This document shows positions 1,273 to 43,092 of a stretch of 64,000 nucleotides of DNA, piece by piece. Below the pieces are notes generated by a model. That model saw nothing but the letters and a program-made list of their open reading frames with translations, made no database searches and was not told where the DNA came from. The number at the start of each line of letters is the position of its first letter. Positions within the stretch are counted from its first letter, which is position 1. Location: positions 1 through 64,000 of IMG/VR virus record IMGVR_UViG_3300046690_000279, one strand, 5' to 3'. This DNA comes from a virus. A program made the position numbers and the translations under genes.

Positions 1273-1291
1273 CCCCCGGTCCGGTGCCTCT

Positions 1292-1308
1292 GGTAACCGA
1301 CTCGCTAG
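1292..1308 (+). promoter_or_regulatory. Phage-specific promoter motif GGTAACCGACTCGCTA upstream of the tRNA/ncRNA cluster
   Basis: Motif recurs 8 times, same strand, at or between gene boundaries; analogous to phiC31 phage-specific lytic promoters. Confidence 0.7.
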
Positions 1309-1316
1309 ATATATGG

Positions 1317-1430
1317 TATGGGCCGGTTGTTCCCGCGCATCAAGATGCAAGCGCACGGCGGACTGCGGACCCGTCCCATAAACGGCCCCGAGCGCTCCCC
1401 TGCCTCTCTCCCAGGGTTGAGCCCGGGGCT
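1317..1430 (+). ncRNA. Two-domain structured RNA; second hairpin has a CCUCUCUCC loop
   Basis: Compensatory changes vs 41706..41821 (TATGGG/CCCATA to GTAGGG/CCCTAC; CCCTG/CAGGG to CCGTG/CACGG; CCCCG/CGGGG to CCCTG/CAGGG). Confidence 0.65.
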
Positions 1431-1432
1431 AC

Positions 1433-1508
1433 GCCGCATTAGCTCAGTCTGGCTAGAGCGCCCGCTCGTTGAGGCGGGAGGTCCTCGGTTCAAATCCTGG
1501 ATGCGGCA
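1433..1508 (+). tRNA. tRNA-like gene with an atypical 8-nt anticodon loop (TCGTTGAG)
   Basis: Acceptor GCCGCAT/ATGCGGC, D-arm GCTC/GAGC, TTCAAAT T-loop; anticodon stem CCCGC/GCGGG closes 8 nt; one T-stem mismatch. Confidence 0.7.
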
Positions 1509-1573
1509 CGGAGCGCGGGACATATGCGGGGCATACACTCCCTAGGCACTGGCAGACAGTGGCTCTCGCGCAA

Positions 1574-1644
1574 CGGCGTATAGCTCAAGGGTAGAGCGTC
1601 CGACAAGGGTCGGAAGACTGTTGGTTCGATTCCAACGGCGTCGA
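1574..1644 (+). tRNA. tRNA-like gene with a 6-nt anticodon loop (CAAGGG)
   Basis: D-arm GCTC/GAGC, T-arm GTTGG-TTCGATT-CCAAC, anticodon stem TCCGA/TCGGA; weak acceptor stem. Confidence 0.65.
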
Positions 1645-1648
1645 CGTA

Positions 1649-1936
1649 GGTGCAGGCAGTAGGCCTTGACCGGTCCACGGTATGCACCCTGGGTGAAACC
1701 GGCTCGTACTGGCCAGCTAGTCACTGGTTGCAGCGCGCGGCGAGTAGCCCTAAATCTTGCTTCGCGTGCGGTGTGCTGGCTATTGGCGCGGCCAGTGGGA
1801 ACACAATTCCCAGCCCGTTAAAGGGCGCCGGTTCGATTCCGGACCATGCGAAGCACTTGGTAAGGGGCAGCGTCAGCGCTGGAAATGCCACCACCCCCAA
1901 GCATCGGTGCCGCGTAGCGGAATGGCCTGGTGCCAA
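1649..1936 (+). ncRNA. Unidentified multi-stem structured RNA with a 100-nt insert
   Basis: Conserved with 41902..42080; stems GGTGCA/TGCACC, CCGG/CTGG, CAGCGC/GCGCTG, CCCT/AGGG; covarying terminal hairpin. Confidence 0.65.
1757..1856 (+). ncRNA. tRNA-like insert: long closing stem, three hairpins and a T-arm
   Basis: TGCTTCGCGTG/CATGCGAAGCA stem; CCGG-TTCGATT-CCGG T-arm; absent in copy B; CTTG direct repeat at the junctions. Confidence 0.6.
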
Positions 1937-2009
1937 TGACACGTAGCTCAACAGGCAGAGCGCCGGACTGTTAATCCGGAGGTCGCAGGTTCGAGCCCTG
2001 CCGTGCCAG
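1937..2009 (+). tRNA. tRNA-Asn(GTT)
   Basis: Cloverleaf; anticodon arm CCGGA-CTGTTAA-TCCGG; one acceptor mismatch. Confidence 0.9.
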
Positions 2010-2063
2010 CGGGGGCAGACTGACGCCCCTAAGCGGTGAAACATCCGTGAAGTCAGTCACTAC

Positions 2064-2146
2064 CCGCTGGTGGTGGAACGGTAGACACGCCAGGCTTAGA
2101 CCCTGGTGCCTGTGAGGGTGTGCGCGTTCGAATCGCGCCCAGCGGA
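2064..2146 (+). tRNA. tRNA-Leu(TAG)
   Basis: Class II cloverleaf with long variable arm; CCAGG-CTTAGAC-CCTGG. Confidence 0.9.
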
Positions 2147-2194
2147 CGAGCCCTGTACGGGGCGCCTGGTTAGCACACCATGAACGTGCGAAGC

Positions 2195-2270
2195 GTGGGT
2201 ATGGCCCAGTTGGTAGGGCGCCTGGTTTGGGACCAGGAAGTCACAGGTTCGAGCCCTGTTACCCGCACCA
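2195..2270 (+). tRNA. tRNA-Pro(TGG), with encoded CCA
   Basis: Cloverleaf; CCTGG-TTTGGGA-CCAGG; ends ACCA. Confidence 0.9.
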
Positions 2271-22885: not shown

Positions 22886-22939
22886 CACATACGGATATCC
22901 GTATGTGGTTTGACAGCGCTAGACGCGCGCCGCTAGTCT
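22886..22939 (+). promoter_or_regulatory. Operator (22886-22907) abutting a housekeeping-type promoter TTGACA-N18-TAGTCT of the repressor gene
   Basis: Same geometry at 36391, 63047 and 63451. Confidence 0.8.
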
Positions 22940-24773: not shown

Positions 24774-24868
24774 AAGTGATGAAGTGACGATTTAGACCAC
24801 ACTCCAGTAATCCCTAAGGAGTTCTATAGGGATTCTGAGACTGCCCTCCAAATCGTCACTCCGTCACT
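24774..24868. repeat. Second inverted iteron-like element (N64 spacer)
   Basis: AAGTGATGAAGTGACG ... CGTCACTCCGTCACT. Confidence 0.6.
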
Positions 24869-24885
24869 GGTAACCGACCCGCTAG
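24869..24885 (+). promoter_or_regulatory. Phage-specific promoter motif
   Basis: GGTAACCGACCCGCTAG at the start of the early region. Confidence 0.7.
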
Positions 24886-24923
24886 CCCCTCTTCGACAGA
24901 GAAATCAACTGAAGGGGGCCACA

Positions 24924-41420: not shown

Positions 41421-41552
41421 CCTAGGTCACACTGTTTGGTCACGGGGCGATCACGGGCGAGTGCCGGTGGTCGCCCTTCGGCGTTACAGCGCACAGGGTC
41501 GGTGACGTTTCTTTTTCAGCGCCCAAGATCAACATGCCATCTGACCTGCAAC

Positions 41553-41648
41553 AAGTGATGAAGTGACGTTTTACCCCTACTTCTCAGAATCACATAAGAA
41601 AACCTATAGGGATTACAGAAGTGCCATCCATATCGTCACTTCGTCACC
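41553..41648. repeat. Inverted iteron-like element (N65 spacer)
   Basis: AAGTGATGAAGTGACG ... CGTCACTTCGTCAC. Confidence 0.6.
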
Positions 41649-41681
41649 ACGGCGCCGTTACCCACCTGTGGCCGCCCGGGG

Positions 41682-41697
41682 CCTTTCACCCGATCTA
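41682..41697 (+). promoter_or_regulatory. Candidate copy-B-specific promoter motif CCTTTCACCCGATCTA
   Basis: Occupies the position of the copy A motif; related motif at 61650. Confidence 0.45.
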
Positions 41698-41705
41698 TAT
41701 ATAGT

Positions 41706-41821
41706 GTAGGGCGGTTGTTCCCGCGCACTGAGGAACGATGACCCGGCGGTCTGAGGACCCACCCTACAAAGCGGCCCTGTGTGCTCCCGTGCCTCTCTCC
41801 CACGGTCTGAGCACCAGGGCT
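41706..41821 (+). ncRNA. Two-domain structured RNA with CCUCUCUCC loop (copy B)
   Basis: Covaries with 1317..1430. Confidence 0.65.
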
Positions 41822-41823
41822 AC

Positions 41824-41897
41824 GCCCCCTTAGCTCAGTGGTCTAGAGCGTCCGCTTGTCGTGCGGAGGGTCACCGGTTCGAATCCGGTAGGGGGCG
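41824..41897 (+). tRNA. tRNA-Asp(GTC)
   Basis: Cloverleaf; TCCGC-TTGTCGT-GCGGA; G73 discriminator. Confidence 0.85.
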
Positions 41898-41901
41898 CGC
41901 A

Positions 41902-42080
41902 GGTGCAGACAATAGGCCGTGACTGGCGCGACGATATGCACCCTGGGTGAAACCGGCGCAGACTGGCCAGCTTGTCACTGGTTGCAGCGCGCGGCGAGTA
42001 ACCCTAAATCTTGGTAAGGGGCAGCGTTAGCGCTGGAAACGCCACCACCCCCATGCAGCGGTGAACTGGTCCGCTGCCAA
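41902..42080 (+). ncRNA. Unidentified multi-stem structured RNA (insert-free form)
   Basis: Homologue of 1649..1936. Confidence 0.65.
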
Positions 42081-42153
42081 TGGCGTGTAGCTCAATCGGT
42101 AGAGCGCCGGACTGTTAATCCGGGGGTTGCTGGTTCGAATCCAGCCGTGCCAG
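42081..42153 (+). tRNA. tRNA-Asn(GTT)
   Basis: Cloverleaf; CCGGA-CTGTTAA-TCCGG. Confidence 0.9.
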
Positions 42154-42272
42154 CTCGCTTCGCGACAGTCACTGAGATTGGTCCCGGCCGTACTCCGGGC
42201 AAGTGCAACGGCGAAGCGCACCGTTCCCCAGCGTCAAAAGAGTGAGACGGCCCGCAAGGGTGCTGGGGCTAA

Positions 42273-42353
42273 CCGCTGATGGTGTAACGGTAGCCACGCC
42301 AGGCTTAGGCCCTGGTGCCTTCGGGCGTGGGGGTTCGAATCCCTCTCAGCGGA
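42273..42353 (+). tRNA. tRNA-Leu(TAG)
   Basis: Class II cloverleaf; CCAGG-CTTAGGC-CCTGG. Confidence 0.9.
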
Positions 42354-42401
42354 CGAGCCCTGTACGGGGCGCCTGGTTAGCACACCATGAACGTGCGAAG
42401 C

Positions 42402-42475
42402 GTGGGTATGGTCCAGTTGGTTAGGGCGCCTGGTTTGGGACCAGGAAGTCACAGGTTCGAATCCTGTTACCCGCA
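42402..42475 (+). tRNA. tRNA-Pro(TGG)
   Basis: Cloverleaf; CCTGG-TTTGGGA-CCAGG. Confidence 0.9.
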
Positions 42476-42492
42476 CGGGTCCGATCGGACCA

Positions 42493-42566
42493 GGGCAGGG
42501 GCAGACGTGCCCATTAGGTTGAAGTGCCGCCAAGGCACGAGGGGTTCAAATCCCGCCTGCCCGCCA
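42493..42566 (+). ncRNA. tRNA mimic without a canonical anticodon arm
   Basis: Acceptor GGGCAGG/CCTGCCC plus G-CCA, TTCAAAT T-loop, two small hairpins; copy B only. Confidence 0.55.
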
Positions 42567-42567
42567 C

Positions 42568-42589
42568 CACATACGGATATCCGGAGGTG
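42568..42589. promoter_or_regulatory. 22-bp operator (SD variant)
   Basis: CACATACGGATATCCGGAGGTG. Confidence 0.8.
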
Positions 42590-42594
42590 CCCCG

Positions 42595-43092
42595 TTGGGC
42601 GAGCATGTCCCCCAGCCTGGTGACTTCGGCCTATGCCGGATATCCGGGCTCACTGGCGCTGCTGTGTCCGCTGGCCAACGCCTGATCGGTTCCGGTAGCT
42701 ACTTCACGCACGCGTTCATCTACCTCGGCGACGGCGAAGTGATTCAGGCCCAACCGGGCGGAGCTAAGCGCATGCTGCTGAGTGACGCCGTGAGCGACCA
42801 CAGCCGCGTAGCGTACTCGTCCTTCCCGCTGGCCCCTATTCAGCGCGCTGCCATTCTGGGCGCAGCGACGTACCTGATTGGCACCCCGTACAGCTTCGCG
42901 GATTACGCGGCCATTGGTGCCCGTCGACTGCTTGGCGTTGCCACGCTGGAACGATTTGTGCGCGATAGCGGCCACATGATTTGTAGTCAGTTCGTCGATG
43001 AGTGTTATCGGCGCGCTGGCTTTGAGCTTTTCCCCGGGCGAATTCCGGGCGATGTTGCCCCTGGCGACCTTGCCAACCTGATTGGAGCGTAG
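42595..43092 (+). CDS. Permuted NlpC/P60 hydrolase (copy B)
   Basis: Homologue of 2296..2793. Confidence 0.75.
   Translation: MGEHVPQPGDFGLCRISGLTGAAVSAGQRLIGSGSYFTHAFIYLGDGEVIQAQPGGAKRMLLSDAVSDHSRVAYSSFPLAPIQRAAILGAATYLIGTPYSFADYAAIGARRLLGVATLERFVRDSGHMICSQFVDECYRRAGFELFPGRIPGDVAPGDLANLIGA

Follow-up and report, generated by a model that had tools for sequence, protein, structure and literature searches.

A candidate accessory RNA operon of tRNA-shaped elements and conserved structured RNAs in a phiC31-like Streptomyces phage

The first 64,000 nucleotides of the virus record IMGVR_UViG_3300046690_000279 in IMG/VR, here called the window, hold an RNA array that is poor in open reading frames (ORFs). 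The locus belongs to a phiC31-like Streptomyces phage and lies between the integrase/attP module and the HNH/terminase late genes. The record contains two diverged genome copies, and we compared their parts inside the window with each other (copy A, 1-40400; copy B, 40400-64000). The array occupies 1317-2270 in copy A and has a counterpart at 41706-42568 in copy B, with blocks that align and are broken up by insertions. We suggest that the array is probably an accessory RNA operon, i.e., one ORF-free unit from which working tRNAs, tRNA shapes that do not decode and structured RNAs that are not tRNAs are released by host tRNA processing. At least three, and probably four, families of non-tRNA structured RNA are predicted in it, namely the leader, S1, X1 and X2 (Table 1). 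The alignments show these non-tRNA modules to be conserved, with helices that covary, folded from the plus strand, specific to phages and prophages, and shuffled between related arrays. Judged by this comparison, it is well supported that the array is a set of real RNA genes, and the processing logic is moderately supported.

Results

tRNA-shaped elements alternate with other structured RNAs

Copy A alternates strictly in the order leader, scaffold, S1, tRNA-like, X1, tRNA-like, X2, tRNA-Asn. The non-tRNA RNAs are directly flanked by tRNA-shaped elements, which is the arrangement that marks tRNA-punctuated RNA. The tRNA-shaped genes were called with ARAGORN and the tRNA model of Rfam 15 (RF00005; gathering cut-off 29 bits). 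There are five in copy A (1433-1509, 1574-1645, 1937-2010, 2064-2147 and 2195-2270) and four in copy B, and all nine ARAGORN calls exceed the Rfam cut-off, with 46-73 bits. ARAGORN passed over two further tRNA-shaped elements. The first-pass annotation of this DNA had described tRNAs or tRNA mimics in alternation with compact structured RNAs, modules that are swapped in or out, and a locus that is more than a tRNA cluster. All of this agrees with the gene calls, with the order in copy A, with the presence or absence of modules across about 60 related arrays, and with the covariation of the non-tRNA RNAs that alternate with tRNAs and non-decoding shapes. Its other claims about the modules fared differently. 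A two-domain leader, a branched hairpin (1510-1573) and a multi-stem RNA (1646-1936) are indeed conserved and covarying in related phages, and the related loci that we collected show compensatory changes for X1, S1 and the leader. The multi-stem RNA, put at about 180 nt, is real and conserved. It is not a single RNA, since it consists of two separable modules, X1 and X2.

X1 is a structured RNA of phages and prophages

A 19-nt core of X1 was found in 11 IMG/VR contigs. With a degenerate pattern, X1 was found in 56 contigs and in four Streptomyces genomes, each of which holds one X1, in a prophage; the remaining matches of this pattern in genomes are chance matches inside coding DNA. Among 149 further Streptomyces genomes that were sampled, none showed X1. 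BLAST located it in the Streptomyces phages TG1, Shawty, Shady, Shaeky and Rowa, where it carries no annotation. The covariance model R1 finds exactly one X1 per phage locus (73-123 bits) and two in the window, one per copy. Across these genomes, X1 is shown to be specific to phages and prophages.

The pairing of X1 was assessed on 55 distinct sequences. Standard pairs fill 96.0% of the pair cells, compared with 85.1% after shuffling and 37-52% when the partners are slid. Double changes are seen at 13 of the 23 pairs, in 123 cells where 27 are expected. The helices come in the order P1, P1a, P1', P2, P3/P4, P2'. P1 (GGUGCA/UGCACC) surrounds a small hairpin, P1a, whose loop is (G/U)UGAC(U/C). 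Next to P2 (GGGU/RCCC) lies an invariant internal loop in which GAAA faces GAGUA; P3 comes after it, and then the hairpin P4, with the conserved loop CUAGUCA. In our own reading, the internal loop matches the sequence of the bulged-G (loop E) motif. One pair in P2 is U.G in 33 sequences and U-A in 21, and this alternation shows that the plus strand is the one that folds.

The loops of P1a and P4 are complementary, and three of the five proposed loop-loop pairs are formed in all 52 sequences. A minor clade alters both loops jointly, from UGACU:AGUCA to (G/A)ACC:GGUU. This covariation, which comes from a single clade, is suggestive of a P1a-P4 loop-loop contact. About 35 positions of X1 are invariant, most of them in loops and junctions, and these invariant loops argue for the specific recognition of a partner.

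The position of X1 was surveyed in 60 contexts. X1 starts 2-6 nt past the 3' end of a tRNA or tRNA-like element in 53 of 58 contexts, and the upstream tRNAs have 13 identities. In the same 53 contexts, the conserved core lies 43-52 nt past that 3' end, a distance that corresponds to the 5' domain of X1 itself plus the linker of 2-6 nt. X1 ends no more than 14 nt from the next tRNA in 36 of 56 contexts. Its slot within the arrays ranges from first to fourteenth.

Four tRNA-shaped elements have no usable anticodon

The canonical tRNAs, with a 7-nt anticodon loop and a 3-nt anticodon, are Asn-GUU, Leu-UAG and Pro-UGG, and additionally Asp-GUC in copy B. Copy B has Asn, a 118-nt spacer, Leu, a 47-nt spacer and Pro in this order between 42081 and 42476. 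Four other elements (1433-1509, 1574-1645, 1759-1854 and ~42493-42566) lack the 7-nt anticodon loop.

The element at 1433-1509, which we call the scaffold, is the first after the leader. Its acceptor, D and T arms are 77-91% identical to those of homologues in other phages, and this body carries five forms of the anticodon arm: the 8-nt loop seen here and, in the homologues, an Ile-GAU loop (locus L021 and phage Rowa), a 6-nt loop (L056), a UUA loop (L015) and a 13-bp palindromic hairpin (four loci). A body with constant acceptor, D and T arms and a replaced anticodon arm is consistent with the expected look of a pure processing signal. In L015 (863-935), the Ile-type scaffold has a 7-nt loop with the anticodon UUA, and ARAGORN reports an ochre-suppressor-like tRNA. 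In the first array element of L018, L019, L035 and L046, the 13-bp hairpin that forms the anticodon arm contains the palindrome CCAUGGGCCCAUGG, and ARAGORN miscalls the element as an 86-nt tRNA-Trp.

The tRNA-like element at 1574-1645 has a 5-bp acceptor stem and a 7-bp T stem, which add up to the usual 12-bp stack. Across six homologues, 97% of the cells are paired, and both the anticodon stem and the T stem show compensatory changes. G3.U70 and A73 are invariant. These are also the identity marks of alanine tRNAs and of transfer-messenger RNA (tmRNA), and the element, though without an anticodon, might accept alanine.

The 96-nt element at 1759-1854, present in copy A only, has an acceptor stem of 10-11 bp and a T arm, together with an extra arm and, in the "anticodon" position, a 5-nt loop (CACAA). 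Its frame, GCUUCGCG...GCGAAGC, also occurs in two other loci and always starts 8 nt past X1, with lengths of 62, 94 and 96 nt. A selenocysteine tRNA (tRNA-Sec, RF01852) was considered for 1766-1849 and rejected (19.2 bits against a cut-off of 47, E = 0.86). The element at ~42493-42566, present in copy B only, has one distant homologue, in L041, and is called by neither ARAGORN nor Rfam. A tmRNA was rejected as well, as ARAGORN finds no tmRNA genes and the window has no Rfam tmRNA match. A further tRNA shape without an anticodon was seen in the 22-tRNA array of L054 (10221-10301), where an 81-nt element exceeds the Rfam tmRNA threshold (58.9 bits) over the tRNA-like domain only.

The leader, S1 and X2 recur in related phages

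The leader recurs in 27 related loci and also upstream of the single tRNA-Thr of phiC31. Its second domain has an invariant 9-nt loop, CCUCUCUCC, and one pair of the stem takes four pair types. In 13 sequences, 90.8% of the cells are paired, compared with 82.9% after shuffling, and 10 pairs show double changes. S1 is found in 14 related loci with 10 distinct sequences. There, 98.8% of the cells are paired, compared with 35-61% when slid, and five pairs show double changes. A search with an exact 25-nt S1 pattern found no further loci. X2 is found in five other loci, and 94.6% of the cells are paired in its six sequences, compared with 41-49% when slid. The alignments indicate that X2 is probably a structured RNA family too, with support that is weaker than for the leader, S1 and X1.

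In spacers of L016, L036 and L048, a variant of S1 of 83-90 nt shows the loop motif GGGUGGUUC. The minor class of X1 (L016, L023, L040 and L048) shows it likewise, sometimes in the same phage. The shared motif suggests a common ligand or an RNA-RNA contact.

Other spacers differ between arrays

The spacers downstream of tRNA-Asn are listed in Table 1. The one at 2011-2063 has one relative, in L043, with one compensatory change that gives GACUGGC/GCCAGUC. The copy B spacer at 42155-42272 has no homologue in related loci or cultured phages. The related arrays hold many further recurrent spacer families, and the repertoire of modules therefore exceeds the set found in the window. One of these families, a 152-nt spacer (L008 10497-10648, L012 and L041), has the series CUGAUGA...GAAAC...GUC and looks hammerhead-like by eye. 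A hammerhead was rejected for this spacer, as Rfam gives no match at E<=5 in the three loci.

Known RNA classes do not account for the modules

Searches with Rfam 15, over the whole window at the gathering threshold and over both arrays at E<=10, returned tRNAs only, and so did those of 17 related loci. Thus the spacers match no Rfam family, in line with the first-pass annotation, which had called the structured RNAs unannotated. Antisense matches to the Rfam entry "Plastid-ycf2" are tRNAs read backwards. The known self-cleaving ribozymes (hammerhead, hepatitis delta virus (HDV)-like, twister, pistol and hatchet) gave no Rfam match at E<=10 in 1100-2400 or 41500-42700. RNase P RNA (RF00010), or a mimic of its S domain, was likewise rejected. 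It has no match at E<=10, and comparison with the Streptomyces RNase P alignment reveals only a shared octamer, GGGUGAAA, in another helical context. In the literature on RNAs of Streptomyces phage tRNA arrays, we found nothing on X1.

Table 1. Features of the RNA array in both genome copies. MFE, minimum free energy; z, z-score against shuffled sequences.
Feature	Position	Strand	Details
Promoter-like motif	1291-1316	+	GGTAACCGACNCGCTAG, then AT-rich -10-like stretch; inverted repeats upstream, at 1178-1272
Leader RNA, two domains	1317-1432	+	Domain 1, long-range stem; domain 2, hairpin 1384-1430
tRNA-shaped scaffold, tRNA-Ile-derived body	1433-1509	+	8-nt anticodon loop UCGUUGAG; ARAGORN anticodon "gttg"; Rfam tRNA 48.4 bits
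S1, 64-nt three-way junction	1510-1573	+	8-bp closing stem and two hairpins
Tetraloop tRNA-like	1574-1645	+	6-bp anticodon stem closed by 4-nt loop; Rfam tRNA 46.4 bits; MFE cloverleaf, z = -3.0
X1, ~110-nt structured RNA	1646-1756	+	Covariance model R1, 112.6 bits (1643-1758)
tRNA-shaped insert, copy A only	1757-1855	+	96-nt element 1759-1854; MFE z = -3.2; not called by ARAGORN
X2, two-hairpin RNA	1856-1936	+	Conserved single strands GGUAAGGGG and GAAAUGCCACCACCCCC
tRNA-Asn (GUU)	1937-2010	+	ARAGORN; Rfam 66.9 bits
Spacer, candidate H-type pseudoknot GACUGAC/GUCAGUC	2011-2063	+	MFE z = -1.1
tRNA-Leu (UAG)	2064-2147	+	ARAGORN; Rfam 54.6 bits
47-nt spacer, candidate pseudoknot 2167-2189	2148-2194	+	Identical in copy B and one other contig; MFE z = +0.4
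tRNA-Pro (UGG)	2195-2270	+	ARAGORN; Rfam 67.5 bits
Leader RNA, copy B	41706-41823	+	Aligned with copy A
tRNA-Asp (GUC), copy B	41824-41898	+	ARAGORN; Rfam
X1, copy B	41899-42012	+	Covariance model R1, 123.1 bits (41896-42012)
X2, copy B	42013-42080	+	Second hairpin without inner stem
tRNA-Asn, copy B	42081-42154	+	ARAGORN; Rfam
Spacer, 118 nt, copy B	42155-42272	+	MFE z = -0.4
tRNA-Leu, copy B	42273-42354	+	ARAGORN; Rfam
tRNA-Pro, copy B	42402-42476	+	ARAGORN; Rfam
Hairpin, then tRNA-shaped RNA (~42493-42566), copy B only	42477-42568	+	5-nt loop GCCAA; encoded CCA; MFE cloverleaf, z = -2.6

Discussion

In the accessory operon that we propose, a single transcript would start at a phage-type promoter, as the motif upstream of the array suggests. 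Host RNase P would cut each tRNA-shaped element at its 5' end and RNase Z would cut it at its 3' end; the tRNA genes are mostly without an encoded CCA. The modules that lie between two tRNA-shaped elements would be freed as discrete small RNAs of about 64 to 115 nt, and the non-decoding tRNA shapes would be mainly processing signals or stabilizing scaffolds. In the most speculative step, the released RNAs, above all X1 with its invariant loops and an internal loop of the AGUA/GAA type, would act in trans by binding a protein or an RNA of the host's tRNA/translation or defense machinery. RNase P and RNase Z could plausibly release the modules, given a tRNA scaffold whose body is preserved and whose anticodon arm is free to vary. 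In a tRNA, it is the acceptor/T-arm part that is recognized by RNase P, RNase Z and the CCA-adding enzyme. Thus, selection appears to maintain a tRNA body that is recognized by these enzymes, rather than decoding. We put forward only tentatively the further idea that tRNA shapes that have lost decoding are natural scaffolds which deliver exchangeable effector RNAs, with X1 as a new class of compactly folded RNA, held by a loop-loop contact, that would bind a tRNA/translation factor or a factor of anti-phage defense.

Several observations weigh against this proposal. Exceptional folding energies are found only for the tRNA-shaped elements (z from -2.6 to -3.2). The non-tRNA modules, at 62% G+C, have an MFE within about two standard deviations of shuffled sequences (z = +1.1 for X2, 0.0 for X1, -1.4 for the leader and -2.1 for S1). 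The statement of the first-pass annotation that nearly every base folds is therefore not borne out as far as energies beyond chance are concerned. The energies are ordinary, and the evidence for the modules is comparative. This evidence is thin in places: X2 has double changes at three pairs, in its two hairpins, a count that in six sequences is not above that of shuffles, and the candidate pseudoknot at 2011-2063 is backed by few sequences. In TG1, a single tRNA, tRNA-Thr, is followed by X1 and then by a coding sequence rather than a tRNA, and therefore RNase P cannot make the 3' end of X1 there. This end may be made some other way, or X1 may stay joined to the mRNA. The promoter before the array is predicted solely from a conserved motif, and a sigma-70 scan gave no match. 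The CU-rich leader loop was considered as an antisense seed for Shine-Dalgarno sites of the phage and was rejected, as there is no enrichment; the phage has six complementary sites where 15.7 are expected, i.e., fewer than by chance. No conserved neighboring protein gene points to a partner. Finally, the public sequencing runs that contain the sequence are rhizosphere DNA metagenomes only, with no RNA run among them, and the label of effector RNAs that had been given to the modules is unsupported.

The array could also be a plain tRNA cluster. The odd tRNAs would then be decaying pseudogenes, and the spacers would be insulators that act only in cis, or entry or stop sites for RNases, and would later be degraded. 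Many spacers are lineage-specific or without a homologue, which fits such a cluster, as do the unremarkable folding energies and the failure to find a target or partner. Furthermore, most tRNAs in large arrays are just 0-5 nt apart, hence processing needs no spacers. However, an insulator does not need some 35 invariant positions in the loops and junctions of X1, and TG1 retains X1 with its single tRNA. The non-decoding shapes preserve their stems by compensatory changes and have bodies that are 77-91% identical between phages, unlike pseudogenes. A plain cluster is thus unlikely in our view. It is small proteins that fit worst. ORFs of 60-107 aa exist mechanically in the array, e.g., a 98-aa ORF at 1650-1946 or a 107-aa ORF at 1721-2044 on the minus strand, so that the earlier claim of no credible ORF holds for the credibility of such frames and not for their existence. 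They have no Pfam match, the third-position GC signal of the flanking genes is not found in 1380-1950, they overlap tRNA genes, and their frames are disrupted between the copies by a 100-nt insertion or deletion. The substitution pattern is the covariation of paired helices, and a coding role is hardly credible.

The constant place of X1, directly 3' of a tRNA of any identity in 53 of the 58 contexts, would suit a ribozyme that cleaves itself and so trims the 3' trailer from the tRNA before it, in the manner of the HDV-like theta ribozymes of gut phages (PMC10879173). The many invariant unpaired nucleotides of X1 would suit it too. But no ribozyme family of Rfam matches at E<=10, and the linker of 2-6 nt, where cleavage would presumably occur, is not conserved. 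Nor does X1 have an HDV-like topology, i.e., a nested double pseudoknot. By inspection, its consensus has P1 around P1a and then P2 around P3/P4, and the sole crossing is the possible loop-loop contact. We regard a ribozyme as improbable. A role in cis is very doubtful in our view. Here the leader, and perhaps X1, would act on the transcribing RNA polymerase (put-type antitermination) or on mRNA stability (as 5' stabilizers), so that the late genes are reached from this promoter, with the tRNAs as passengers. No part of the unit is more constant than the leader, which is present even in phiC31 with its single tRNA, and the array lies directly upstream of HNH/terminase with no terminator-like site found within 1000-2600, the stretch that spans it. 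Against this, no terminators have been identified that need overriding, the slot of X1 is variable, and cleavage by RNase P would detach the leader from the downstream RNA.

The proposed operon resembles several known systems. Phage T4 reportedly encodes the small stable RNAs C and D (species 1 and 2) in its tRNA region. These RNAs are structured, co-transcribed with tRNAs and released by tRNA processing. The likeness lies in small structured non-tRNA RNAs within a phage tRNA cluster. However, host and phage lineage are unrelated, and the locus described here has several RNA families, a modular presence or absence and non-decoding scaffolds, and is known from sequence alone. tRNA-like processing signals are found in mitochondrial tRNA punctuation, in the tRNA-linked small RNAs of murine gammaherpesvirus 68 and in MALAT1-mascRNA, and the "tRNA scaffold" is an engineered form. 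In these cases also, other RNAs are flanked by tRNA shapes in which the anticodon arm is reduced or replaced while the acceptor/T-arm body is conserved. They are eukaryotic, viral-eukaryotic or man-made, whereas cleavage at the phage elements here is a prediction. Bacterial and phage Y RNAs (YrlA, RF02553) are comparable as tRNA-like small RNAs in actinophage tRNA arrays. As an identity for elements of this array they were rejected, with a best score of 20.2 bits against a cut-off of 69, over tRNA-Asn, and no Ro60/TROVE match in the 81.7-kb record. The theta ribozymes also adjoin phage tRNAs (PMC10879173), and like X1 they are structured RNAs immediately 3' of the tRNA. X1 has another helix topology, is about twice as long, has no Rfam match and has no conserved linker at the junction. 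GOLLD and ROOL RNAs lie near phage tRNA arrays (PMC12286853) and share with the present modules that they are conserved structured RNAs beside tRNA genes in phages and prophages. They differ in being 500-800 nt long, multimeric and from Firmicutes and other hosts, whereas the modules here have 64-115 nt and no Rfam match.

As far as Rfam 15, the phage annotation in GenBank and the searchable literature show, X1, S1, the leader and X2 appear to be new RNA families. Within the same limits, the evidence that tRNA bodies are retained as scaffolds while their anticodon arms are exchanged also appears to be new. The first-pass annotation had spoken of a candidate new phage RNA system. This fits the four families, which have no Rfam match, but arrangements of this kind have precedents. 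Annotation usually treats phage tRNA clusters as a codon supply and ignores their spacers; here, these spacers contain RNA families on which structural selection is clear. X1 is unannotated in TG1, Shawty, Rowa and Shaeky, phages that can be grown in the laboratory, and its function is thus directly testable. The tRNA bodies whose anticodon arms are replaced would correspond, in nature, to the engineered tRNA scaffold and to the eukaryotic tRNA-like processing signals, and they let one ask what non-decoding phage "tRNA" genes are for. If the released RNAs do act on host translation or defense, they would form an RNA-based layer in the conflict between phages and the main antibiotic-producing bacteria.

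Locus and gene context

The IMG/VR record has direct terminal repeats and contains two diverged phiC31-like genomes of about 40 kb, head to tail. Three origins are conceivable for this double genome: two prophages in tandem, a heteroconcatemer, or two co-occurring relatives that were joined during assembly. The gene order common to both copies is an ORF of the size of a serine integrase, an ORF with a Stc1 domain, the RNA array, a C92-like peptidase, an HNH endonuclease, and the small and large terminase. In the cultured Streptomyces phages phiC31, TG1, Shawty and Rowa, the genome end has the same core, with integrase, then tRNA gene(s), then HNH endonuclease.

Inverted repeats, GAAGTGATGAAGTGACG and CGTCACTTCGTCAC, about 64 bp apart, are found at 1178-1272, 24774-24868 and 41553-41648, where they precede the RNA array and the early region. 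The GGTAACCGACNCGCTAG motif comes next at two of the three sites; motif and repeats together recur ahead of the early region at 24774-24886. phiC31 has comparable repeats upstream of its own tRNA-Thr (L120 1880-2050). Close to the repressor region, at 22887-22906, there is a perfect 20-bp palindrome, ACATACGGATATCCGTATGT. Its half-site, ACATACGGATATCCG, occurs at 2270-2284 and 42569-42583, where it starts at the last base of each array and stands before the ribosome-binding site of the next gene. The palindrome and its half-sites look like a candidate operator.

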